NCBI GenBank assembly: GCA_030632085.1
Contig: DAOVJY010000002.1
Coordinates: forward strand, 13,325-77,324
DNA: 64,000 bases
Direction of reading: 5' to 3'
Source of the DNA: Candidatus Omnitrophota bacterium
GTDB taxonomy: Bacteria > Omnitrophota > Gorgyraeia > JAGLLT01
Made by a program: the position numbers and the translations under genes. This document shows positions 3,756 to 47,024 of the stretch, in pieces; within the stretch, counting starts at the first letter, position 1; each line of letters begins with the position of its first letter. The notes under the pieces are model-generated. The model was given only the letters and a program-made list of their open reading frames with translations. It searched no databases and was not told the DNA's origin.

Positions 3756-5594
3756 ATGAAAAATAAAATTAGTTATGATGTTATTGTGGTGGGAGCGGGG
3801 CATGCCGGTTGTGAGGCGGCTTTAGCTTCTGCTCGTCTTAAATTAAATACCGCTCTGGTTACATTTAATATAGATAAAATAGCGCTTTTAAGTTGTAATC
3901 CGGCGGTAGGCGGCCTGGGCAAAGGCCAGCTGGTTAAAGAAATCGACGCCCTGGGCGGTGAAATTGCCAAGGCGGCTGATAGTGCCGGTATTCAGTTTAA
4001 AAAACTTAATGCTTCTAAGGGGCCGGCTGTCTGGTCCAGTCGGGCTCAGGTGGACATGAATGATTACCCCGCGTATATGAGGCGGATAGTTGAGAAGCAA
4101 GATAACCTCACGCTTATTGAAGGGGAGGCTACAGGTTTTATTATTAAGGCGGATAAAATACAAGGCATAAAGCTAGATAAAAATAGAACTCTAAAAGCAA
4201 AAAAGGTTATTTTAGCCTGTGGAACTTTTTTAAACGGCCTGATGCACATTGGTATGGAGAGTTTTGAAGGCGGCAGAATAGAGGAGCCGGTCTCGGCTAA
4301 GAAGATTTCAAAAGAGTTAAAAAAAATCGGCCATAAATTGCTTCGCTTTAAAACCGGCACCTGTGCCAGGTTAGACAGGGCTACTATAGATTTTTCAAAG
4401 TGCACTACTCAGGAAGGTGATAAACCACCCCTGCCATTTTCTTTATCTAATGAAAAATTAATTAAGAAACAAGTTACCTGTTATATAACTTATACTAATG
4501 AAAAAACTCACAAGATAATCAGAAATGATTTAGAGCGTTCGCCTTTATTTTCAGGCAAAATTACCGGAACAGGGGTAAGGTATTGCCCTTCATTAGAAGA
4601 TAAAGTGGTGAAGTTTCCGCATCATAAGCGCCATCAGATTTTTTTAGAGCCGGAGACTAAGGAAAATATTCAGTATTATCCCAACGGTTTGTCAACCAGT
4701 TTGCCCCGGGATGCCCAGGAAGCCTTTATTCGTTCGGTTCCGGGCTTAAAAAATGTAAAGATAAACCGCTATGGTTATGGAATTGAACATGATGCCTTCG
4801 ACTCAACTCAGCTTTACCCAACTCTAGAATCAAAATTAGTTAAGGGGCTTTATTTAGCCGGTCAGATTAATGGGACAACCGGCTATGAAGAAGCTGCCGC
4901 CCAAGGAATTATCGCCGGTATTAACGCTGTTTTATCCATAAGCAAAAAAGAACCCTTGGTATTAGATAGGGCTTCAAGTTATATTGGGGTGTTAATTGAT
5001 GATTTGGTAACTAAAGGTACTAACGAACCTTACAGGATGCTGACTTCAAGAGTAGAATACCGCCTTATTTTAAGGGAAGATAATGCCGACCTGCGCCTTA
5101 GGAAAATAGGTTATAAGGTTGGTTTAATTAGTAAAAATGAATATAGTAAAATTTTAAAAAAAGAAAAAGAAATAATAGCGGTTATAAAATTTTTAAAAAC
5201 AGAGAAAATGCGTCATAGAACCGGCAAAATAACTCTCTATCAGGATTTAAAACGTCCCGAGGTAAAAATAAAAGACATTAAAAAGAAGTATAAACTAACT
5301 TTTTCCGATGCCGCCTTAAGGCAGGTAGAAATCGCTGCTAAATATGAGGGTTTTATTAAGAGGCAGGAGGCACAAGTAAAGGCTTTTGAGGATTTAGAGA
5401 AAATTAAAATACCAACAAATATAAATTATAAAAAAGTACCTTCTTTATCTTTAGAGATTATTGAAAAACTAACATATTTTAAACCCCTAACATTGGGTCA
5501 GGCTAATCGTATCTCAGGGATTACCCCGGCGGCTATTACCGTATTAATGGTTTATTTGAAAAAGAAAAAACATGTTTCCAAAGGCAAGATATAA
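3756..5594 (+). CDS. mnmG: tRNA uridine 5-carboxymethylaminomethyl modification enzyme MnmG/GidA
   Basis: 612 aa with N-terminal YDVIVVGAGHAGCEAA FAD-binding motif and GidA-family similarity throughout (GLYLAGQINGTTGYEEAAAQG). Confidence 0.95.
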   Translation: MKNKISYDVIVVGAGHAGCEAALASARLKLNTALVTFNIDKIALLSCNPAVGGLGKGQLVKEIDALGGEIAKAADSAGIQFKKLNASKGPAVWSSRAQVDMNDYPAYMRRIVEKQDNLTLIEGEATGFIIKADKIQGIKLDKNRTLKAKKVILACGTFLNGLMHIGMESFEGGRIEEPVSAKKISKELKKIGHKLLRFKTGTCARLDRATIDFSKCTTQEGDKPPLPFSLSNEKLIKKQVTCYITYTNEKTHKIIRNDLERSPLFSGKITGTGVRYCPSLEDKVVKFPHHKRHQIFLEPETKENIQYYPNGLSTSLPRDAQEAFIRSVPGLKNVKINRYGYGIEHDAFDSTQLYPTLESKLVKGLYLAGQINGTTGYEEAAAQGIIAGINAVLSISKKEPLVLDRASSYIGVLIDDLVTKGTNEPYRMLTSRVEYRLILREDNADLRLRKIGYKVGLISKNEYSKILKKEKEIIAVIKFLKTEKMRHRTGKITLYQDLKRPEVKIKDIKKKYKLTFSDAALRQVEIAAKYEGFIKRQEAQVKAFEDLEKIKIPTNINYKKVPSLSLEIIEKLTYFKPLTLGQANRISGITPAAITVLMVYLKKKKHVSKGKI

Positions 5595-8688: not shown

Positions 8689-8695
8689 GAAGCTG

Positions 8696-8723
8696 GATTA
8701 AGAATTAAGGATTAAGGATTAAG
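8696..8723 (+). repeat. tandem heptad repeat (G/A)ATTAAG x4
   Basis: gattaag aattaag gattaag gattaag sits directly after the guaA stop. The same module recurs at 39310-39337. Confidence 0.8.
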
Positions 8724-9035
8724 TAAAAGCAAAAATAAAGACAAGAGGAAGAATTAAGAGGAGAGCGCAGAGCGTTTAGGAAAAACTAAAAAGATCATTA
8801 TTTGTAAACTTGCTATATGCTATTTGCTAAACGCTAAAAAATAGGGTTATTGTTTTCAATTAAAGTCTTTTTGGGATCGGCTGGTAAAAGAATTGCAATA
8901 TCCACCGTGCTCCATTTCGTAGGTGGTACAGGTTGGTGGTATAGGGTGCATAGAAAATCATTGACAGTCGATAAAAATATAAGTAAACTATTGCTATAGC
9001 TAGTATATTTCGCTTAAGGTACAGAGGTGTTTCTT

Positions 9036-9067
9036 GGGCAGGCAGATAAGTACTGCCTGCTTTTTTA
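9036..9067 (+). terminator. rho-independent terminator
   Basis: gggcaggcag / ctgcctgc stem followed by ttttttatt, about 350 nt downstream of guaA. It may terminate an unannotated small RNA. Confidence 0.55.
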
Positions 9068-9108
9068 TTAACCGGTGATTTTATTTTTGTGAAAAAAGGT
9101 GATAATTA

Positions 9109-9945: not shown

Positions 9946-11370
9946 ATGCCCAAGCCTAACGAAAAAGTTCATATGCTTACTCAGGATGTCCAAAAGAGAA
10001 AGAATAATTTTGATGAAGTAGCTCTCGGCCTTACTGAAGAACTAGCCGTAAATGAAGCTCAAAGATGCTTAAACTGTAAAAAGCCTCTTTGTATGCAAGG
10101 CTGTCCGGTAGGTATTAATATACCTGAGTTTATTATGCTTATTAAAGAGCGTAATTTTTTAGAGGCGGCCAGAGTAATAAAGAAGGAAAACCTGCTTCCG
10201 GCTATATGCGGCAGGGTTTGCCCGCAGGAAGACCAGTGCGAGAAGGCTTGTGTGCTTGATAGGACAGGCAAGGCTATTGCTATCGGCTATCTGGAAAGGT
10301 TTGCAGCCGATTATGAAATGAAAAATAGTCCGCAAAAAAGAGAAAATGGAGCCATCAGCCATCAGCCATCAGCCATCAGCCCACAGCAATGTAAAATTGC
10401 TGTAATCGGTTCCGGCCCATCCGGCCTTACATGTGCCAGCGAACTTAGAAAGAAAGGCTATCAGGTAACACTTTTTGAAGCCTTTCATAAGCCGGGCGGT
10501 GTTTTAATGTATGGTATTCCGTCATTCAGGCTGCCCAAAGATATTGTTAATTATGAAATAGATAATCTGCGAAAAATGGGAGTTGAAATAAAGGTAAACA
10601 GTGTTATAGGCAGGTTGAAAACAGTAGATCAGCTTATTAAGGATGAAGGCTACAGCGCGGTTTATATAGCCACGGGAGCCGGCCATCCTGTTTTTATGGG
10701 TATCGCGGGAGAAGAGCTTAATTATATCTATTCTTCAAATGAATTTTTAACCCGGGTTAATTTAATGGAAGCCTATAAGTTTCCGGAAGTGGATACACCT
10801 GTTGTTTTGGGTAAGAAAGTTGCTGTAATCGGCGGCGGCAATACAGCTATGGATTCAGCCAGGTGCGCGCTGCGCATGGGTACTGAAAAAGTGTACTGTA
10901 TTTACAGGCGTTCTGAGAAAGAGATGCCGGCCAGAGTTGAGGAGATTGAGCATGCCAAGGAAGAGGGTATAGAATTTATGTTTCTTACCGCGCCGGTTAA
11001 ATATATAGGTGATAGCGATAATAATGTTAAAAAAGCAGTTTGCATAAAAATGGAATTAGGCGAGCTGGATGATTCAGGAAGAAGAAGGCCGATTCCCATT
11101 GAAGGCAGCGAATTTGAAATTGAGGTAGATTCGGTAGTTGTTGCCATTGGCACTAATGCTAATCCTCTAATTTCTGATACGACTAAGAATATGGAAGTCA
11201 ATAAATGGGGTTATATTGTGACTGATGAGGCAGGCAGGACTACCAAAAAACGAGTCTACGCCGGAGGGGATATTGTAACCGGTTCAGCCACAGTTATTAA
11301 GGCTATGGGAGCCGGTAAAGAAGCCGCCCATGTAATAGATGAGGATTTGAAAAATCTTGATAGAAAATGA
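9946..11370 (+). CDS. nfnB: glutamate synthase small-chain-like NADPH oxidoreductase subunit (NfnB/SudA/GltD family)
   Basis: 474 aa. Two N-terminal 4Fe-4S Cys clusters (CLNCKKPLCMQGCP, CGRVCPQEDQCEKAC) and FAD/NAD Rossmann motifs (IAVIGSGPSGL, VAVIGGGNTAMD). Confidence 0.85.
   Translation: MPKPNEKVHMLTQDVQKRKNNFDEVALGLTEELAVNEAQRCLNCKKPLCMQGCPVGINIPEFIMLIKERNFLEAARVIKKENLLPAICGRVCPQEDQCEKACVLDRTGKAIAIGYLERFAADYEMKNSPQKRENGAISHQPSAISPQQCKIAVIGSGPSGLTCASELRKKGYQVTLFEAFHKPGGVLMYGIPSFRLPKDIVNYEIDNLRKMGVEIKVNSVIGRLKTVDQLIKDEGYSAVYIATGAGHPVFMGIAGEELNYIYSSNEFLTRVNLMEAYKFPEVDTPVVLGKKVAVIGGGNTAMDSARCALRMGTEKVYCIYRRSEKEMPARVEEIEHAKEEGIEFMFLTAPVKYIGDSDNNVKKAVCIKMELGELDDSGRRRPIPIEGSEFEIEVDSVVVAIGTNANPLISDTTKNMEVNKWGYIVTDEAGRTTKKRVYAGGDIVTGSATVIKAMGAGKEAAHVIDEDLKNLDRK
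10352..10386 (+). repeat. in-frame heptanucleotide tandem repeat (gccatca x3) inside nfnB
   Basis: gccatcagccatcagccatcagcccaca encodes AISHQPSAISPQQ in the linker between the ferredoxin and FAD domains. Confidence 0.7.
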
Positions 11371-11608
11371 TATCAATAAACGGGCGGACACAAGGCCCGC
11401 CCCTACGATATCTGATATTATTTGTGCGTTTAAATCAAAATGTTCCGTCGGATATTTAAAATATATAAAACAAAATAATCTTGATATTTCCGGACAAATA
11501 TGGCAGCGGTCGTTTTATGACCATGTTATCAGAAATGAACGTTCGCTAAATGCTGTAAGAGAATATATTTCGAATAATCCTGAAAACTGGGAAGAGAATA
11601 TCTCATGA
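11357..11608 (+). pseudogene. REP-associated tyrosine transposase (RAYT / IS200-like, COG1943), C-terminal fragment
   Basis: 83 aa ending WQRSFYDHVIRNERSLNAVREYISNNPENWEE, the catalytic-Tyr helix and C-terminus of RAYT/IS200 TnpA. The N-terminal HUH half is missing (full length is about 150-180 aa). Confidence 0.65.
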
Positions 11609-25052: not shown

Positions 25053-25087
25053 AGGGAAGGAAGTTAATTCGGGCAAATAAATTTAAT

Positions 25088-25191
25088 ATCCCGCATTTCG
25101 CTAAAGCTCAAAGTTGCGGGATTTAATTCGGCCATATGATTTATGAGCACTATAGTTCCATAAATCATGGCCTCATTAAAGGAGGAGAAAG
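25088..25191 (+). promoter_or_regulatory. conserved 5' leader module (hairpins, TTAATTC, anti-SD CCTC-ATTAAAGGAGG)
   Basis: Hairpin atcccgca-N19-tgcgggat (25088-25122). ttaattc at 25123-29. Hairpin atgatttatg...cataaatcat (25136-25168). ggcctcattaaaggagg (25169-85) in which CCTC can pair with the SD GAGG. ATG at 25192. Confidence 0.5.
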
Positions 25192-26427: not shown

Positions 26428-26671
26428 TTTCCGGGACTAAATCTTCGGAATTTCACAGCGTGAAATTCCAGAGGGTCTGACAATTTTGCGACTCTCGGCG
26501 GAATTAATTCATCCTGCCATTATGGAACTCATTAAGGAAATCAATAGACTCCTCGCTTAAATAAAGGTAAATTTTCTTCGACAATTTACCTTTAAGCTTC
26601 GGAGTTAATTCTGGTCTATCATTTACAACAATGAAGTTGGTGTAAATGATGCCCTCATTAAGGAGAGGTAA
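26428..26671 (+). promoter_or_regulatory. long structured leader: degenerate module copy, then palindrome AAAGGTAAATT-N9-AATTTACCTTT, TTAATTC, hairpin and anti-SD/SD
   Basis: Perfect palindrome GGAATTTCAC-AGC-GTGAAATTCC at 26445-26467. 11-bp perfect inverted repeat at 26563-26593 (spacer ttcttcgac). ttaattc at 26605-11. Hairpin 26618-26650. gccctcattaaggag at 26651-65. ATG at 26672. Confidence 0.5.
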
Positions 26672-31481: not shown

Positions 31482-31496
31482 GTGAAGACACAACTT

Positions 31497-31625
31497 ATAG
31501 AGCGGGAGCGAACATAAGTTGTATGTCTGAACTTACCCCGCAACTTTCTATTTCGGAGAAGTTCTTCGTAGCAAAAAAGTGCGGGGTTTAATTCGCACAG
31601 AAACTTACGCTCACTTTGTTTCGTA
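31497..31625 (+). promoter_or_regulatory. hairpin-rich intergenic region (three stable stem-loops), a candidate structured RNA or regulatory region
   Basis: agacacaacttat...ataagttgtatgtct (about 14 bp stem). ccccgca-N34-tgcgggg followed by tttaattcg (same architecture as 25088-25129). aaacttacg...cgtaagttt. Confidence 0.3.
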
Positions 31626-31689
31626 AGTTTAGCGCTCATTTAAAAAATAGCTTGAAATAACCCCCTATTTCTGTAACAATGTACTCTAA

Positions 31690-34879: not shown

Positions 34880-35074
34880 TTGTGGGTGGCAGTATCAGCT
34901 GATGTCTTAAAAGGTAAGAAATGTACTTGTTTTTTTGCGATTAAAGATGATGTTATAAATGCCGGGGCTACATATCTGGATGAAGAGGTTGTTGTAGATG
35001 GTAATTTAATTTCATCCCGCAAACCTGAAGATTTGCCCGCTTTCTTAAGGGCTATTATTGATAAATTATCTTAA
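34880..35074 (+). pseudogene. DJ-1/PfpI family C-terminal fragment
   Basis: 64 aa. VLKGKKCTCFFAIKDDVINAGATYLDEEVVVDGNLISSRKPEDLPAF matches only the last third of DJ-1/PfpI. The N-terminal about 100 aa, including the nucleophile Cys, is missing, and the fragment starts with TTG. Confidence 0.6.
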
Positions 35075-35117: not shown

Positions 35118-35600
35118 GTGGAGCTCAATAAAGCGATGGTAAGATTGCTCTCGAAACATAAAATTGTAATGGTTTCGAGCGCCTCAAAAGACGGCAAACC
35201 CAACGCTTCACTTAAAGGGATTGTAGAAGTCCTACCGGAGAAAGGGATAATATATTTTCTTGATTTGTATTCCCAAAAAACCAGGAATAATCTTTTGGAA
35301 AATCCGCAGGTTTCTATATCTATCGCGGATATTGATGGATTTGAAGGATATCAGTTTAAGGGTGTAGTTGAGCTGATGAATGACGGAGAGATGTTTAAAA
35401 AATATATTAAGAGATGGGAAAGGCAGAGAACGGTTTTATTAATCGAAAGAATGATAAAAAATGTTCAAAAAGGTTCCAGCCACGGACGCCATGAATTGTT
35501 TCTGCCTGAACCGAAATATCTGGTAAAAGTGCGCGTAACTGAAATTTATGATTTGTTACCCCACAGTGGTTCTCAGAGTAATAATAAAAAGAAAACTTGA
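35118..35600 (+). CDS. pyridoxamine 5'-phosphate oxidase-like FMN-binding split-barrel protein
   Basis: 160 aa. GTG start. KIVMVSSASKDGKPNASLKGIVEV is typical of the PNPOx-like family. Confidence 0.65.
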   Translation: MELNKAMVRLLSKHKIVMVSSASKDGKPNASLKGIVEVLPEKGIIYFLDLYSQKTRNNLLENPQVSISIADIDGFEGYQFKGVVELMNDGEMFKKYIKRWERQRTVLLIERMIKNVQKGSSHGRHELFLPEPKYLVKVRVTEIYDLLPHSGSQSNNKKKT

Positions 35601-35623
35601 AATATAAACGGAGATTTTTTGAG

Positions 35624-38600
35624 ATGGCAAGTAAAATGAAAACCATGGATGGTAACACAGCGGCCGCCTATATAGGCCATGCCACAAATGAAGTAATCGC
35701 AATATATCCCATAACTCCTTCATCCGGAGTGGGGGAAATGGCTGACGCGAAATCCGCCAAGGGAGAAGTTAATATTTGGGGCCAGGTACCAACTGTATCC
35801 GAGCTTCAGTCGGAAGCGGGTGCTGCGGGAACTGTACACGGCGCCTTGACAGCCGGCAGCATGACTACAACATTTACCGCTTCTCAAGGCCTGCTTTTAA
35901 TGATTCCTAACATGCATAAAATAGCAGGTGAACTTACACCTGCTGTTTTTTATGTGACCGCTAGAACTGTGGCCTCACATGCTTTATCCATTTTTTGTGA
36001 CCACTCTGATATTATGGCAGTGCGCTCGACCGGTTTTGCCATTCTTTCCGGTTCCAGTGTTCAAGAGGTTATGGATTTAGCCTTAGTGGCTCAAGCGGCT
36101 ACATTGGAATCCAGAGTTCCGTTTGTTTTTACCTATGACGGCTTCAGGACTTCACATGAAATTCAAAAGATAGAAGAAATTGATTTTGCGAGCATGAAAT
36201 CTCTTATAAAAAATGAATACTTAAGAAGCCATAGGCTCAGGGGACTTAATCCTGAAAGGCCGGTTTTAAGGGGTACTTCTCAGAATCCGGATGTTTTTTT
36301 TCAGGAAAGGGAAACCGTAAACGCGTATTATGATAAATGCCCTCAGATAGTTGAGGATGTAATGAAGAGATTTAAAGAAGTTGTCGGTAGGGAATATAAA
36401 CTTTTTGAGTATGTCGGAGCCCCGGACGCCGAGCGCGTCATTTTGATTATGGGTTCTGCCGCCGAGACGGTTCACGAGGCAGTTGATTATCTGGTTGCTC
36501 AAGGTGAAAAAGTAGGCGTTCTAAAGGTAAAATTGTTCAGGCCTTTCTCGATAGAGCATTTTATTAAGGCTTTACCTGCCAGCGTTAAGAAAATTGCTGT
36601 TTTGGATAGGACTAAAGAGCCTGGAGCTTTAGGCGAACCACTTTACCTTGACGCGCGCTCAGCTATTGGTGAAGCTATGGAAAAAGGTATAGCTACGCTT
36701 AAGGAGTATCCGGTAATTGTTGGCGGCAGGTATGGCTTGGGTTCTAAAGAGTTTACGCCGGCTATGGTAAGAGGTGTTTTTGATAACCTTTCTTTAGATA
36801 AAAACAAAATAAAGAATCATTTTACTGTTGGTATCAATGACGATTTAACTCATACAAGCTTGGAATATAATGCTGAATTCTCAACTGAAGACCCTGATAC
36901 TTTCAGGGGTATTTTTTACGGTTTGGGTTCAGATGGTACTGTGGGAGCTAATAAGAATTCAATTAAAATAATCGGTGAGTTGACTGATAATTATGTCCAA
37001 GGTTATTTTGTTTATGATTCCAAGAAAGCCGGTTCAAAAACAGTTTCACATTTAAGATTCGGCAAACATCTCATCAGAGGAACTTATCTGATAAGTAAAG
37101 CTAACTTTGTAGCTTGTCACAATTTTTCGTTTTTAGAGAAATATGATGTTTTAGGAGCAGCTGAAGATAAGGCTACTTTTCTTTTAGCCAGTCCTTTTTC
37201 AAAAGATGAGGTCTGGGATAAAATGCCTATAGAGGTGCAGAAACAGATAATTGATAAGAAATTAAAATTTTATGTAATTCAAGCTTATAAACTAGCCGGG
37301 GAAATCGGTCTTGGAGTGAGAATAAATGTAATAATGCAGACCGCTTTTTTTGCTATTAGTGAAGTAATTGATAAAAATAAAGCTGTTGAGGCTATTAAGG
37401 ACGCGATTATAAAGTCCTATGGGAAAAAGGGTGAAAGCGTGGTTAATATGAATAACCAGGCTGTAGATAAAGCCCTTGAAGCTATTGAAGAAGTTATTGT
37501 TCCCAAGGAAGCAACCAGTAAAATAAAAATACCGGCTGCGGTACCCGATGAGGCTCCTGAATTTGTAAAGAATGTAACAGCAAAAATAATCGTGGATAAA
37601 GGTGATGAGCTTCCGGTTTCCGCCTTTCCGAAGGATGGGACTTTTCCGACAGCGACATCGCAGTATGAAAAACGAAACATTGCTATAAACATTCCTGAAT
37701 GGGATCCTGAAATATGTATCCAGTGTGGCCAGTGTTCATTAGTTTGTCCGCACGCGGCTATCAGGATGAAGATGTATGATAAAAAGCTTTTAGATAAAGC
37801 TCCTGTTACTTTTAAGCATATGCAGGCAAAAGGAAAAGATTTAGAAGGCAAGGCATTAACTATACAAGTGGCTCCCGAGGATTGTACCGGTTGCGGTGCT
37901 TGTGTTAATATCTGTCCAATTACGCGAAAAGATAAAGACAATAAGCCTACAGGCAGAAAAGCGCTTAATATGGTACCTCAAATTGACAGGCGTCTAAAAG
38001 AAAAAGATAATTTCACATTTTTCTTATCGCTTCCGGATATGAAAGCTGAAGATTTACCAGTTGGTATAGGGACTTTAAAAGGTTCTCAGTTAATGAGGCC
38101 TTTATTTGAGTTTTCCGGTGCTTGTGCCGGTTGCGGTGAAACACCCTATGTAAAACTACTTTCTCAACTTTTTGGAGACAGGGCTTTAATTGCCAACGCG
38201 ACCGGCTGTACTTCAATTTACGGTGGTAATTTACCGACAACACCCTATTGCGTTAGAAATGATGGCAGGGGCCCCGCTTGGTCAAACTCTTTATTCGAGG
38301 ATAACGCTGAGTTTGGTTTTGGTATGCGCCTGGCTGTTGAACAGTTATCGGAAAAAGCCAAACTTCTTTTAAAAGATGTAGCTGAAAAAATATCTGATAA
38401 AAAATCGCTTATTGATGAAATTATAACAACCAGCCAGATAACTCATGATGAGATAGATAAACAAAGATTTAGAATTGAAGAATTAAGAGAAGCCCTAAAA
38501 AAATTCAGTAGTGAGGCGAAGGTAGCTGAGTTACTTGAAATACTGGATTACCTGGTGAAAAAATCAGTTTGGATTTTAGGTGGTGACGGCTGGGCTTATG

Positions 38601-39283
38601 ATATCGGCTATGGCGGTTTGGATCATGTGCTGGCTTGCGGAAAAAATGTAAATGTTCTGGTGCTGGATACGGAAGTATATTCAAATACAGGCGGGCAGAT
38701 GTCTAAAGCTACTCCTATGGGAGCTGTTGCTAAGTTCGCGGCTGCCGGCAAGCCGATATTTAAAAAAGACCTGGGTTTACTGGCTATGGCTTACGGTAAT
38801 ATTTATGTGGCCAGGATAGCTATGGGTGCTAATCCGGCTCAAGCGATAAAGGCTTTTGTTGAGGCTGAAAGTTACGACGGCCCTTCGATTATTATAGCTT
38901 ACAGTCACTGTATAGCCCACGGAATTAATATGACTAAAGGTATGGAGCAGCAGAAAAAAGCTGTCGCTTGCGGTTGCTGGCCGTTAATAAGATTTAACCC
39001 TGATCTTTTAAAAGAAGGTAAGAATCCTCTACAGCTTGATTCGAGGGAACCTAGTATACCTCTGGAGGATTACATTTATAATGAAAACAGATTTAAAACT
39101 CTTAAGAAATCCAACCCTCAAAGGGCTAAAGAATTATTAGACTTGGCTCAGCATGAGGTTAATTGCAGATTCAAGAGATATCAATATATGGCTAAGATGG
39201 ATTGTTCTCAAGAAACAAGTATAAAGTCATCAGTCATACCCTTTCGGGCACAGGCAAGTCACAAGCAAGAAGCAAATAGCTAA
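35624..39283 (+). CDS. nifJ: pyruvate:ferredoxin (flavodoxin) oxidoreductase, single-polypeptide NifJ/Por type
   Basis: About 1219 aa from the ATG at 35624 (the ORF-track start at 35597 is an upstream TTG). Ferredoxin-domain Cys motifs (CIQCGQCSLVCP, CTGCGACVNICP), TPP domain GGDGWAYDIGYGGLDH. The last about 20 codons are derived from the intergenic repeat module. Confidence 0.93.
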   Translation: MASKMKTMDGNTAAAYIGHATNEVIAIYPITPSSGVGEMADAKSAKGEVNIWGQVPTVSELQSEAGAAGTVHGALTAGSMTTTFTASQGLLLMIPNMHKIAGELTPAVFYVTARTVASHALSIFCDHSDIMAVRSTGFAILSGSSVQEVMDLALVAQAATLESRVPFVFTYDGFRTSHEIQKIEEIDFASMKSLIKNEYLRSHRLRGLNPERPVLRGTSQNPDVFFQERETVNAYYDKCPQIVEDVMKRFKEVVGREYKLFEYVGAPDAERVILIMGSAAETVHEAVDYLVAQGEKVGVLKVKLFRPFSIEHFIKALPASVKKIAVLDRTKEPGALGEPLYLDARSAIGEAMEKGIATLKEYPVIVGGRYGLGSKEFTPAMVRGVFDNLSLDKNKIKNHFTVGINDDLTHTSLEYNAEFSTEDPDTFRGIFYGLGSDGTVGANKNSIKIIGELTDNYVQGYFVYDSKKAGSKTVSHLRFGKHLIRGTYLISKANFVACHNFSFLEKYDVLGAAEDKATFLLASPFSKDEVWDKMPIEVQKQIIDKKLKFYVIQAYKLAGEIGLGVRINVIMQTAFFAISEVIDKNKAVEAIKDAIIKSYGKKGESVVNMNNQAVDKALEAIEEVIVPKEATSKIKIPAAVPDEAPEFVKNVTAKIIVDKGDELPVSAFPKDGTFPTATSQYEKRNIAINIPEWDPEICIQCGQCSLVCPHAAIRMKMYDKKLLDKAPVTFKHMQAKGKDLEGKALTIQVAPEDCTGCGACVNICPITRKDKDNKPTGRKALNMVPQIDRRLKEKDNFTFFLSLPDMKAEDLPVGIGTLKGSQLMRPLFEFSGACAGCGETPYVKLLSQLFGDRALIANATGCTSIYGGNLPTTPYCVRNDGRGPAWSNSLFEDNAEFGFGMRLAVEQLSEKAKLLLKDVAEKISDKKSLIDEIITTSQITHDEIDKQRFRIEELREALKKFSSEAKVAELLEILDYLVKKSVWILGGDGWAYDIGYGGLDHVLACGKNVNVLVLDTEVYSNTGGQMSKATPMGAVAKFAAAGKPIFKKDLGLLAMAYGNIYVARIAMGANPAQAIKAFVEAESYDGPSIIIAYSHCIAHGINMTKGMEQQKKAVACGCWPLIRFNPDLLKEGKNPLQLDSREPSIPLEDYIYNENRFKTLKKSNPQRAKELLDLAQHEVNCRFKRYQYMAKMDCSQETSIKSSVIPFRAQASHKQEANS

Positions 39284-39500
39284 TAGCTAAGAGCAAAGGG
39301 CAAACACAGGATTAAGGATTAAGAATTAAGGATTAAGTAAAAAACAAGATACAAAAAACAAGTACAAAGTCACAAGACACAAGTTGTAAGTCACATGACA
39401 TAAGTCACAAGTAAAAAACAAAAACAAAAGAACAAAAAGATAAGACACAAGAAATAAGTTATAAGTCATACCCTTTCGGGCACAGGCAAGACACAGGTCA
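39232..39500 (+). repeat. modular A/C-rich intergenic repeat locus 2 (modules D, A heptads, B decamers, C A/C tracts, D)
   Basis: agtcataccctttcgggcacaggcaag at 39232-58 (inside the PFOR 3' end) and again at 39464-90. Heptads gattaag/aattaag at 39310-37. aagtcacaag / aagacacaag decamers. caaaaacaaaagaacaaaaaga tracts. Almost T-free on the + strand. Confidence 0.8.
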
Positions 39501-39526
39501 CAAGAAACAAAAAAGTAAAGATGTCC

Positions 39527-39649
39527 CTTGCTTAAACAAAGGTAAATTCTCTTTGACAATTTACCTTTAAGCTTCGGGATTAATTCGGGCTTATCATTTA
39601 CGACAGCGAAGCTGACGTAAATGATGCCCTCATTAAGAGGAGGGTTTGT
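39527..39649 (+). promoter_or_regulatory. conserved cis-module copy 2: palindrome AAAGGTAAATT-N9-AATTTACCTTT, TTAATTC, hairpin, anti-SD/SD
   Basis: Inverted repeat at 39538-39568 with spacer ctctttgac (contains TTGACA). ttaattc at 39580-86. Hairpin 39593-39625 with compensatory changes relative to copy 1. gccctcattaagaggagg. ATG at 39650. Confidence 0.55.
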
Positions 39650-39838
39650 ATGAAAGCTGTAGTAATTAAAGATTTATGTACCGGTTGCGGCCTTTGTGTC
39701 AGCACCTGTCCTGATGTTTTTGAAATGGTTGGTGATGTAGCGGAAGTTAAAGGAGATGTTGTACCTGAAGCCGCCGAGGATACCGCGAAAGAGGCTACTC
39801 AGAATTGTCCTGTAGAGGCCATAACCATCGAAGAATAG
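39650..39838 (+). CDS. fdx: 4Fe-4S ferredoxin (single-cluster type)
   Basis: 62 aa. CTGCGLCVSTCP plus the distal Cys in NCPVEA. Confidence 0.85.
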   Translation: MKAVVIKDLCTGCGLCVSTCPDVFEMVGDVAEVKGDVVPEAAEDTAKEATQNCPVEAITIEE

Positions 39839-39845
39839 TTTATAT

Positions 39846-40174
39846 ATGTTAGAAGAGCTTCAATCAACTTTAAAGGATTACATTCAAGCCGGTCAGGTAC
39901 TTTCTTACCTGACCGCTTTTGTTAGCGGTTTTTTCCTGAGTTTTACCTCGTGCATATATTCTCTAATTCCGGTAACTTTAGGCTATATAGGGGCGACGGA
40001 TACGAATTGTCATCGAGCTTTTATGTTATCTCTAACTTATGTTTTAGGGATAAGCGCTATGGGGTTAGGGGCGTGCCGTACATGGTTATAATTGATAAAA
40101 CCGGGAAAATTAAATGGACGGGCCATATATTGGATAATACTGCCAGAACTATACTAAGAGAACTTTTTAGTTAG
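39846..40174 (+). pseudogene. remnant of a CcdA/DsbD-type thiol-disulfide transporter fused out of frame to a TlpA/ResA-like thioredoxin C-terminus
   Basis: Frame A (39846-40091) gives the CcdA TM1-2 signature FLSFTSCIYSLIPVTLGYIGA and then a stop. A different frame (to 40174) gives RGVPYMVIIDKTGKIKWTGHIL, the C-terminal GVP-T-F-ID-GKI motif of TlpA-like thioredoxins. TM3-6 and the CxxC region are missing. Confidence 0.6.
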
Positions 40175-42546: not shown

Positions 42547-42667
42547 AAATAAGTCACAAAAGATAAGTCATAAGTCACATGACACAAGTCACAAGACAAA
42601 TAGCTAAGAGCAAAAAACAAAAGAACGAAAAACAAAAAACTAAAAAAAACAAGAAATTGAACTACTC
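42547..42667 (+). repeat. modular A/C-rich intergenic repeat locus 3
   Basis: aagtcacaaaagataagtcataagtcacatgacacaagtcacaagac, then aaatagctaagagc, then caaaaaacaaaagaacgaaaaacaaaaaactaaaaaaaacaag. Same modules and order as locus 2. Confidence 0.8.
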
Positions 42668-42760
42668 CTTGCTTAAACAAAGGTAAATTATCAAAGAGAA
42701 TTTACCTTTAAGCTTCGGAGTTAATTCTCCGCCTAAGGCGGATCATTAAGGAGTATAACA
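42668..42760 (+). promoter_or_regulatory. conserved cis-module copy 3 (palindrome with inverted spacer, TTAATTC, GC hairpin, ATCATTAAGGAG)
   Basis: aaaggtaaatt (42679-89), atcaaagag, aatttaccttt (42699-709). The spacer is the reverse complement of copy 2's. ttaattc at 42721-27. Hairpin tccgcctaaggcgga. tcattaaggag. ATG at 42761. Confidence 0.55.
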
Positions 42761-46758: not shown

Positions 46759-47024
46759 GGCTATCAGCTGGCAGCTAAACAAGTCACAAGTCATACCCTG
46801 GTGGGCACAGGCAAGACATAAGTCACAAGTAAAAAAATAAAAACAAACAAATAAGATGCAAGAAACAAGTGCAAAGTCATACCCTGGTGGGCACAGGCAA
46901 GACATAAGTCACAAGATAAATAGCTAAGAGCCAAGAGCTTAGAGCTAAGAGCAAAAAACAAAAACAAAAGAACAAAAAGACAAAAAGCTGAAGGCTAATA
47001 GCTGAAAGCAGAGAGCTGATAATT
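46759..47024 (+). repeat. modular A/C-rich intergenic repeat locus 4 with two identical 41-nt direct repeats
   Basis: agtcataccctggtgggcacaggcaagacataagtcacaag at 46789-46829 and again at 46875-46915 (100% identical). aaatagctaagagc. caaaaacaaaagaacaaaaaga. It runs up to the mdh ATG, with no palindrome or leader module. Confidence 0.85.

Follow-up and report, generated by a model that had tools for sequence, protein, structure and literature searches.

A short dispersed module in heptanucleotide arrays at the end of a PFOR gene and inside genes of Omnitrophota

In a stretch of 64,000 nucleotides (nt) from a Candidatus Omnitrophota bacterium (contig DAOVJY010000002.1; the whole stretch is called the window), the gene for pyruvate:ferredoxin oxidoreductase (PFOR) ends in repetitive DNA. 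This raises the question of how a gene can obtain its last codons and its stop from a repeat, and what kind of repeat this is. The element concerned is module D, a 26-nt sequence of the form GTCATACCC-NNNN-GGGCACAGGCAAG, together with the arrays of 7-nt units (heptads) which surround it. A first reading of the DNA without database searches (the sequence-only reading) had derived the end of PFOR from this module and had offered three mechanisms for the repeats, namely REP/MITE-like elements, translational enhancers and protein-binding arrays. Absent from that reading was the conservation of the module across the phylum and its in-frame translation inside genes. The PFOR locus itself appears to be a by-product of repeat insertion, and it is the phylum-wide element that is noteworthy.

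The repeat-derived end of PFOR

The open reading frame (ORF) of PFOR (35597-39283) ends in ...RYQYMAKMDCS-QETSIKSSVIPFRAQASHKQEANS*, where the peptide VIPFRAQAS is module D and the stop lies within AGCTAAT heptads. As the heptad register already begins at 39209, the entire tail of 24 codons is array sequence. Among the 60 best PFOR orthologues, the conserved part stops at the equivalent of MDCS/MDYS and is followed by short tails that are unrelated to one another; the best matches of the C-terminal region of the window PFOR are proteins of Omnitrophica/Omnitrophota. The earlier proposal of a repeat-derived tail and stop therefore stands, since none of the 60 orthologues shares the tail and the closest relative has no spacer at all, with the correction that the repeat sequence starts at 39209 rather than 39232 and provides 24 codons.

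This closest relative, P0002 on contig L040 (L numbers denote the loci fetched for comparison), is 78% identical in the C-terminal region of PFOR and ends in ...HMADVDYSLERGDSK*. The TGA of its PFOR overlaps the ATG of a 62-aa ferredoxin (AGTAAATGA), which is 73% identical to the ferredoxin of the window. Because L040 contains neither a spacer nor the repeat segment and thus represents the empty site, the approximately 420 nt from 39209 to ~39630 are, by this comparison, an insertion specific to the lineage of the window. Two further Omnitrophota PFOR genes also lack the array, one being followed by a hairpin-plus-T-run terminator and the other by a 6-nt gap. The insertion contains heptad arrays, two copies of module D and a separate promoter- or leader-like cassette, and it would have replaced the native last codons and stop of PFOR with 24 repeat-encoded residues and the TAA of a heptad. 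The TAACTGA repeats of Beggiatoaceae, which offer stops in every frame, follow the same logic as the TAA heptads (PMC4679880).

All four copies of module D in the window match its pattern (GTCATACCCNNNNGGGCACAGGCAAG) exactly and lie on the + strand, with none expected from 100 shuffles, and the search found no fifth copy even with up to 3 mismatches allowed. They are confined to two spacer regions (four per 64 kb), and one of the four is coding. The sequence-only reading had seen this recurrence correctly: the second copy lies downstream of PFOR, and two more with the loop TGGT follow at 46790-46815 and 46876-46901. The partners of each pair share their loop and lie 232 nt (39233/39465) and 86 nt (46790/46876) apart. 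Likeness around the copies reaches 66 nt, corresponding to 39210-39275 for the first copy, and the 82% identity of copies 1 and 2 over this length points to a local duplication.

Module D is embedded in degenerate arrays of NNNNAAG units, and when set in 7-nt register most of 39209-39511 becomes a single such array. The bias towards heptads is strong: period-7 arrays of at least three copies occur six times in the window against 0.4 expected, and the pattern AAG-N4 repeated four times occurs six times against 0.07 expected, while tandem arrays with periods of 5, 6 and 9-13 were not found in the window. Tandem Repeats Finder (TRF) rows of period 7 start at 8695, 10350, 39271, 39308, 39344, 42565, 42611 and 46922. 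The units are heterogeneous (GGATTAA, AGCTAAG/AGCTAAK, AAGTCAC/AAGACAC, CAAAAAC and AGCCATC), with AAG recurring every 7 nt over 39346-39409 and 39442-39463. The likeness noted earlier to the heptads after guaA is exact, as GGATTAA is repeated four times both at 39308-39337 and at 8695-8723. The array 46776-47024 holds four AGCTAAG units (46922-46952) and a CAAAAAC tract (46952-46990) and reaches the ATG of mdh; a contig of the independent Logan assembly ends inside it. The array 42547-42652 begins directly past the stop of a metallo-beta-lactamase-fold gene (end 42546) and ends at a leader cassette. A further array is translated in the inter-domain linker of an NfnB-like gene; this linker is variable in the alignment with NfnI 5jca_L, and the array has no sense-frame stops.

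The description of the + strand of these tracts as almost devoid of T was too strong, since T makes up 10-15% of the arrays against 29% of the window and falls to 3% only at 46953-46990; they are T-poor, and their G content is 11-21% against 22%. The tract 3' of the PFOR stop is unstructured, with C at only 16-18%, G at 11-17% and A at about 50%. A design that keeps the intergenic arrays of the window free of stops was ruled out, as each sense frame contains 4-7 of them, and the TAA-bearing heptads at 39271-39337 close every one of the three frames within ~21 nt. Stop-free in the sense direction are module D, with exceptions that depend on the loop, and some heptads such as AAGTCAC, CAAAAAC and AGCCATC. 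A minus-strand ORF of 77 aa with a TTG start (39326-39559) consists wholly of low-complexity repeat DNA and was treated as spurious. A scan of 38900-39900 found neither an intrinsic terminator nor a sigma-70 promoter on the + strand in 39209-39511; Rfam 15 gave no match at gathering score in the whole window and none at E up to 1 in 39150-39700, and the window yielded no tRNA or tmRNA. In most genomes of the survey by Mrazek (2007), as related in PMC4679880, heptanucleotides are the most frequent class among long simple repeats, and they are attributed there to polymerase slippage.

The surroundings of PFOR hold remnants of other genes, namely the C-terminal third of a DJ-1/PfpI gene (34880-35074) and, directly past ferredoxin, the first ~55 residues of a DsbD-type membrane domain (39846-40091). 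With the fragment of a REP-associated tyrosine transposase (RAYT; Table 1), they suggest at the sequence level that the PFOR neighbourhood has been rearranged or has decayed.

Module D across Omnitrophota and inside genes

A scan of GTDB with one genome per species and the pattern TCATACCC-N4-GGGCACAGGCAA returned 21 stretches with the exact 20-base core, where about one match per scan is expected by chance from the size of the collection against 4^20. Nearly all of them come from ~10 Omnitrophota metagenome-assembled genomes (MAGs) from Guaymas sediment, groundwater, the Black Sea and a deep mine. A second scan of JGI metagenome contigs added 16 stretches, and a third scan of viral contigs gave no match and hence no sign of a phage vehicle. 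The GC content of the Omnitrophota MAGs with the core ranges from 34% to 51%. Two matches, L020 (Solirubrobacteraceae) and L035 (GC 71%), were not counted as members: they have no heptads and probably arose by chance, as about one such match is expected per scan.

The 34 distinct copies from which the consensus was built vary only in the four loop bases, which occur in 12 variants, mostly T-N-N-C. The consensus reads (AAGTCAC)n-AAG-TCATACCC-TNNC-GGGCACAGGC-AAG-TCAC, and bases beyond the search pattern are kept as well. The unit is thus 25-26 nt long with a central CCC-N4-GGG and flanks of AAGTCAC heptads, and these heptad/AAG flanks may belong to the element itself. As the stem is invariant in all copies, there is no covariation to score; the variable loop between constant arms fits a hairpin. 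A search of the literature library found no paper linking Omnitrophota with such repeats, and an element of 25 nt that is found across a phylum, always in sense orientation and translated in three frames, is apparently an undescribed family.

At least 16 copies of the module lie inside long ORFs, where the frame of the host gene is kept and conserved protein sequence is found on both sides. Two further copies form C-terminal tails, in an M50 peptidase and a 7TM-HD protein, and mirror the situation in PFOR. All three reading frames of the module are in use, giving SYPxGHRQ, SHTLxGTGK and VIPxRAQA, which excludes selection on the peptide; the conserved object is the nucleic acid. In the VIPxRAQA frame, the loops avoid TAA, TAG and TGA. 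No antisense copy was found in the long ORFs of Omnitrophota-like contigs; the antisense core is open in two of three frames. The hosts outside the window, which include rpoC, hisF, prmC, pdxA and a folC-like gene, do not bear out the tie to highly expressed energy genes that the first reading had drawn from the window.

Programmed bypass and a mini-intron were ruled out as explanations of these copies. All copies in ORFs preserve the frame of their host and have no stop in it, which would be needless if the segment were taken out, and the loss of a 25-nt unit would itself break the frame. A comparison of the pdxA genes of the window and L012 as a further empty site was discarded, because the site falls in a variable loop, overall identity is 42% and no precise boundaries are visible. 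A synthetic translation of heptads and two modules, a query too short for a database of 5.8 billion proteins, gave 88 word candidates and no match at E up to 1.

The module also shows signs of turnover. Copies of 25-26 nt stand in tandem in L006, L011 and L037, the second copy is shortened in L013, and decayed copies lie beside exact ones in L008, L011, L014 and L016. Adjacent copies have the same loop, as both pairs of the window do. In L032, the pdxA copy carries a nested palindromic insertion of 69 nt (~1776-1865, - strand) which is missing from L012. Here and in L037 (~2200-2268) and L008 (~5100-5226, - strand), long palindromes of the type 'CCTTCGAC...GTCGAAGG' replace the 4-nt loop; they sit between GTCATCCC and GGGAC arms which resemble module D and are of CCC/GGG(A)C type. 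The widespread type of nested palindrome encodes FD..R/..ELVEG-like peptides and is read in-frame, for example in pdxA. Two contigs contain joins of unrelated genes exactly at the module: L036 consists of the 5' half of hisF and the 3' part of the fumarase gene (compare L030 and L039), and L038 (3-893) joins a GATase to the C-terminal domains of CysS. Either the repeat has led to chimeras in the assembly here, or the joins are genuine products of ectopic recombination.

In MAG 4484_171 and related loci (L003, L009, L018, L021, L024 and L029) and in L033, the module lies in composite spacer repeats of ~200 nt. They carry sense heptad and decamer arrays (CACAGATTAA..., GGTCACAA) on one side and the reverse complement on the other, which resembles the long palindrome of a MITE (a miniature transposable element with inverted repeats) or of a doublet of repetitive extragenic palindromic (REP) sequences (REPIN), and contigs frequently end in them. 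Heptad arrays are inverted in some genomes; inverted modules are not among them.

Table 1. Features of the window with their positions, and genes of other loci that host module D
Feature	Position	Strand or orientation	Basis
Repeat-derived 3' end of PFOR: 24 codons (QETSIKSSVIPFRAQASHKQEANS) and TAA stop 39281-39283	39209-39283	+	Translation, orthologue C-termini, heptad register
Module D copy 1, loop TTTC, translated VIPFRAQAS	39233-39258	+	Exact pattern match, translation
Stop-containing heptads AGCTAAT/AGCTAAG/AGCAAAG, then GGATTAA x4	39271-39337	+	TRF, stops per frame, sister array 8695-8723
Degenerate NNNNAAG array (AAGTCAC, AAGACAC-like units) with CAAAAAC/CAAAAGA tract 39414-39440	39339-39464	+	TRF, repeat families
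Module D copy 2, loop TTTC, intergenic	39465-39490	+	Pattern match; flanks 82% identical to copy 1 over 66 nt
Last heptads of array, AGACACA GGTCACA AGAAACA	39491-39511	+	7-nt register
Promoter/leader-like cassette 5' of ferredoxin, distinct repeat family inside the insertion	39512-39649	+	Copies at 26537 and 42653; absent in L040
Second array, between icd and mdh, heptads with module D copies 3 and 4	46776-47024	+	TRF, pattern match
Third array, with AAGTCAC heptads, AGCTAAG and CAAAAAC tracts and no module D	42547-42652	+	TRF, repeat families
Fourth array, GGATTAA x4 and A-rich heptads, 7 nt past guaA stop	8695-8760	+	TRF, repeat families
AGCCATC x4.6 heptads, in-frame (GAISHQPSAISPQQ), inter-domain linker of NfnB-like gene	10348-10390	+	TRF, NfnI 5jca_L alignment
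RAYT C-terminal fragment, truncated	11357-11608	+	Pfam Y1_Tnp E 1.7e-4 (profile 59-121/121); NF047646 E 3e-10 (71-131/146)
HisF: module in loop, +6 residues relative to solved HisF (HisF-LUCA)		sense	PDB homologue alignment
CarA: module in inter-domain linker		sense	PDB homologue alignment
RpoC: module within protein		sense	Pfam
AdoHcyase: module within protein		sense	Pfam
PdxA: module within protein		sense	Pfam
Mur-ligase/FolC-like enzyme: module within protein		sense	Pfam
PrmC: module in linker		sense	Pfam
Class I fumarase: module within protein		sense	Pfam
DUF4954 protein: module past domain			Pfam
M50 peptidase: module as C-terminal tail			Pfam
7TM-HD protein: module as C-terminal tail			Pfam

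The ferredoxin cassette and the rival explanations

The cassette in front of ferredoxin combines an inverted repeat, AAGGTAAATT-N9-AATTTACCTT (39539-39567; three matches in the window against 0.01 expected), with a TTAATTC motif, a hairpin and CTCATTAAGAGGAGG. Its conserved 55-nt core, CCYYGCTTAAAYAAAGGTAAATT-N9-AATTTACCTTTAAGCTTCGGRRTTAATTC, is found at 26551-26605, 39526-39580 and 42667-42721. Downstream of these copies lie a CoA-disulfide-reductase-like gene, the ferredoxin gene and an aminotransferase gene. In the cassettes at 26551 and 39526, a stable hairpin is followed by CTCATTAAGGAG just 5' of the start codon, while the cassette at 42667 has a different, shorter hairpin and ATCATTAAGGAG. 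By its sequence, the cassette looks like a shared operator/promoter with a stabilising 5' leader, or like a cis-regulatory RNA.

Leaders related to the cassette occur at 25053-25191 and 31482-31689, and the theme of GTTAATTC plus a hairpin is also seen 5' of a Nitro_FeMo-Co-domain gene and a PIN_5 gene. Elsewhere in the window, at 8961-9070 and just 5' of nfnA, a sigma-70-like promoter (TTGACA-17-TAAACT) is followed after ~47 nt by a strong intrinsic terminator (GGGCAGGCAG...CTGCCTGC and a T-run). This segment may represent a small RNA or an attenuator of transcription; its sole Rfam match is weak (DUF2815 RNA, E 0.3).

On balance, the arrays at 39209-39511, 46776, 42547 and 8695 are probably selfish or neutral repetitive DNA of two layers and without regulatory function. 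In the first layer, NNNNAAG arrays would expand, contract and drift through slippage during replication and through larger blocks being duplicated locally. In the second, the dispersed 25-26-nt unit (A)AG-TCATACCC-TNNC-GGGCACAGGC-AAG would act as a hairpin with invariant flanks and a free loop, that is, as a non-autonomous and strand-specific mini-element of the REP or small dispersed repeat (SDR) type, which has spread in Omnitrophota and prefers AAGTCAC-type heptads. We infer that it is moved in trans by a host enzyme which recognises the hairpin on single-stranded DNA, with a HUH/Y1 transposase of the RAYT type as the leading candidate. The module and the commonest heptads offer no sense stop, except in one frame if the loop starts with TAA, TAG or TGA, and because of this lack of sense stops, copies in tolerant loops, linkers and 3' ends would escape purging and become translated. 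At PFOR, the insertion would have hit the end of the gene in a lineage where its stop originally overlapped the start of ferredoxin, moving the two genes ~420 nt apart, exchanging the native end for the repeat residues and taking the new stop from a TAA heptad. Of the three mechanisms first offered, the REP-like one fits best; a strict MITE does not fit, as terminal inverted repeats and a consistent target duplication are missing.

The orientation of the module bears on the mechanism of its movement. GC skew marks leading and lagging strands, and HUH transposases act on the lagging-strand template. The window is AT-rich with 22.4% G and 15.7% C on the + strand, which carries 68 of the 70 long ORFs; as this strand is both G-rich and gene-bearing, the sense strand of the module would by the skew argument be the lagging-strand template. 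The single orientation fits a mechanism on single-stranded DNA, and it fits an explanation at the RNA level as well. One-directional gene order is likewise seen in most of the fetched Omnitrophota loci.

The RAYT remnant that the sequence-only reading placed at 11357 is real, being a C-terminal fragment which scores 40 bits with NF047646 against a cut-off of 80. An intact RAYT (85 bits, above the cut-off) exists in L017, an Omnitrophota MAG, at 582-1262 on the - strand, 950 nt from a copy of the module and with another gene in between. The suggested check for copies that flank an intact RAYT found none, as the RAYT of the window is truncated and that of L017 is unflanked, and the link between RAYT and module D is circumstantial. 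A palindromic GTAGCTAC-GTTT-GTAGCTAC lies just downstream of the L017 gene.

Several observations weigh against a selfish mini-element moved by such an enzyme. The RAYT fragment of the window is unflanked by modules and lies 28 kb from the nearest one; a tblastn search with it of the 333 kb of fetched loci gave one weak match (L017) and no other Y1 gene near the copies, and neither an autonomous partner nor a flanking transposase for module D was found. Terminal inverted repeats are absent from the consensus of 34 copies, and a consistent target duplication is not seen either. The hairpin is weak, with a CCC/GGG stem and an outer stem of 3 bp (3+3 bp), and folds with -7.1 kcal/mol as RNA (z -1.3) and -3 kcal/mol as DNA. 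With nearly all genes pointing the same way, orientation cannot be separated from the direction of genes or of replication. The exact 20-nt core is kept between genomes whose proteins are 60-78% identical, and the window has no decayed copies, both of which are unusual for neutral selfish DNA; in HisF, the same loop holds the module in two distant genomes (L015 and L030) in different frames. The exact core, the missing decay in the window and the shared HisF loop could reflect selection for function or strong concerted evolution.

A tentative proposal, which we consider rather unlikely as a whole, would make module D the hairpin that is recognised by a trans-acting system conserved throughout the phylum, be it a domesticated enzyme of the HUH/RAYT type or a protein that binds or processes RNA. 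This system would keep the copies identical by selection or re-copying, even in essential genes, and would amount to a 'coding-compatible REP system' on the sense, lagging-template strand that is accepted in any frame and remodels protein termini, surface loops and operon junctions of the streamlined Omnitrophota genomes. It is similarly doubtful that the repeats are functional RNA, with the sense strand of the arrays as unstructured, A/C-rich, AAG-periodic platforms in 3'-UTR or intercistronic RNA on which a protein of the S1, Csp, Hfq or CsrA-like kind would bind, and module D as a hairpin that binds protein or blocks RNase, tuning the stability or translation of neighbouring genes. Selection would then hold the sequence of the module constant in the phylum. 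Copies in ORFs are without exception in sense orientation and those beside genes mostly so, only the loop of the otherwise invariant 20-nt core is free, and the loop ends T...C are kept although a T-initial loop can create stops in one frame. The 7-nt spacing of AAG is far above chance, the mdh array reaches right up to its start codon, analogous arrays of heptamers lying upstream of start codons have been proposed as sites for post-transcriptional regulators (PMC4679880), and heptamer repeats changed reporter expression in Nostoc (bioRxiv 10.1101/2022.06.06.494920). Against this stand the seemingly haphazard hosts and positions, from loops of rpoC, hisF, carA, folC-like and fumarase genes to C-termini and intergenic DNA, the tandem duplicates and truncated or decayed copies, and the direct PFOR-ferredoxin overlap without an array in L040. 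The fold is weak and without an Rfam match, and heptad arrays are inverted in some genomes. In addition, the ferredoxin array lies upstream of the promoter-like cassette and would be outside the leader if this cassette is the promoter, which also argues against the earlier suggestion of a translational enhancer in the 5' untranslated region of ferredoxin.

The G-poor, unstructured tract past the stop could also be a rut site at which Rho ends the PFOR, guaA and icd transcripts and insulates the next gene. Arrays do start 0-7 nt past stop codons, PFOR is followed by no intrinsic terminator, predicted structure is low, local C equals or exceeds G on a G-rich strand, and the next gene has its own promoter-like cassette. 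Such a role is nevertheless improbable, since the C content of only 16-18% is at the genome average of 15.7% and it is A, not C, in which the tracts are rich, Rho would be unable to load where identical sequences lie within translated ORFs, the mdh array leaves no room for a promoter before the start codon, and the conserved hairpin module stays unexplained. An oriented architectural or uptake-type signal of the chromosome, following the logic of FtsK-orienting polar sequences (KOPS), Chi or DNA uptake and kept by molecular drive or selection, would account for occurrence in many species, in coding and non-coding DNA, in any frame and in a single orientation matching gene and replication direction (GC skew). 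Uptake sequences, however, occur in both orientations; module D is arranged in tight local pairs (232 and 86 nt) and tandem duplicates instead of even spacing, with four per 64 kb in two spacers, and with its 24 nt and a hairpin far exceeds the oriented motifs known so far in length, so that this explanation is quite improbable. A mis-join at repeats of the metagenome scaffold as the source of the PFOR tail and spacer is very improbable. Repeats do break and mis-join assemblies, as seen for the Logan contig that ends in the mdh array and for the joins in L036 and L038, but the order of PFOR and ferredoxin is the same in L040 with nothing foreign joined, the family is found in independent projects and habitats and always in Omnitrophota, and at least 16 copies continue in-frame with conserved protein on both sides.

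Under the preferred explanation as selfish or neutral DNA, module D looks like a very small selfish element which reshapes the ends and loops of proteins. Its sequence stays the same throughout a phylum of very small, uncultured cells, and rpoC, hisF and carA tolerate it; as a case of selfish DNA in coding sequences it would be unusually small and widespread. For annotation, this implies that repeats, rather than functional domains, account for the C-terminus of PFOR, the linker of the NfnB-like protein and numerous insertions in proteins of Omnitrophota, and that PFOR and ferredoxin, a translationally coupled pair in the relative, are split in the window. The repeats are also a hazard for MAG quality, as they break contigs and chimeric or recombinant joins occur at the module (hisF with fumarase, GATase with CysS). 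On the other hand, the motif is a near-diagnostic tag for Omnitrophota contigs, and it offers a natural guide to sites where insertions are tolerated and a lead to the enzyme that may move it.

Module D among known repeat systems

The Rickettsia palindromic elements (RPE; Ogata et al. 2000/2002), presented in PMC10969869 as selfish DNA read in-frame, are likewise short dispersed repeats that occur in-frame at tolerant sites of unrelated housekeeping genes, where they become additional pieces of the protein, and also between genes. As described there, they differ from module D in their length of ~100-150 bp, their clearly palindromic structure and their single conserved peptide per family, and they are known from Rickettsia. 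Module D is set apart from this description by its 25-26 nt, its minimal hairpin, the use of three frames, its place within heptad arrays and its occurrence in another phylum, and kinship by sequence is not expected.

REP and REPIN sequences are similar in being dispersed repeats of 20-40 nt with a hairpin (a putative one in module D) and high copy number which are non-autonomous and presumably mobilised in trans by a single-copy HUH/Y1 enzyme (PMC3116915). REPs lie outside genes, are mostly arranged as inverted doublets and flank the RAYT that belongs to them (PMC3116915), whereas many copies of module D are intragenic, those of the window are all direct, the stem measures only 3+3 bp and modules flank none of the RAYTs. 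MITEs are set apart by their terminal inverted repeats and target-site duplications, neither of which module D has. REP sequences are, moreover, usually species-specific, while module D is constant across many species.

Closest in size and in the pairing of a mini-element with heptamers are the cyanobacterial SDR4-6, which are said to be 21-27 nt long with a central hairpin, to be considered mobile and to occur in genomes rich in heptamers (short tandemly repeated repetitive sequences, STRR), reportedly in the work of Elhai and colleagues in 2008 and Mazel and colleagues in 1990; this likeness refers to the definition of SDRs. The phylum is another one, and the sequences would differ as well. 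To our knowledge, systematic in-frame translation in essential genes and strict sense orientation are not part of the SDR description. In the account of PMC5861425, SDRs are restricted to Nostocaceae.

The arrays of the window resemble the TAACTGA repeats of marine Beggiatoaceae, cyanobacteria and Bacteroidetes (MacGregor 2015, PMC4679880), which are tandem intergenic units of 7 nt that sometimes overlap an upstream stop, are occasionally in-frame at protein termini and for which slippage has been proposed. The arrays differ from them in their other and mixed units, in being long and degenerate, in lying mostly just 3' of genes instead of 5' of starts, and in hosting a hairpin module.

Module D can therefore be placed only in the wide class of small dispersed repeats that are non-autonomous, as it departs from REP, MITE and RPE in defining features of each. 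By analogy, its closest counterparts would be the RPE in behaviour, the cyanobacterial SDR in size and context, and the REP/RAYT system in its presumed mobilisation, with the arrays closest to heptanucleotide long simple sequence repeats (LSSR) and TAACTGA repeats.

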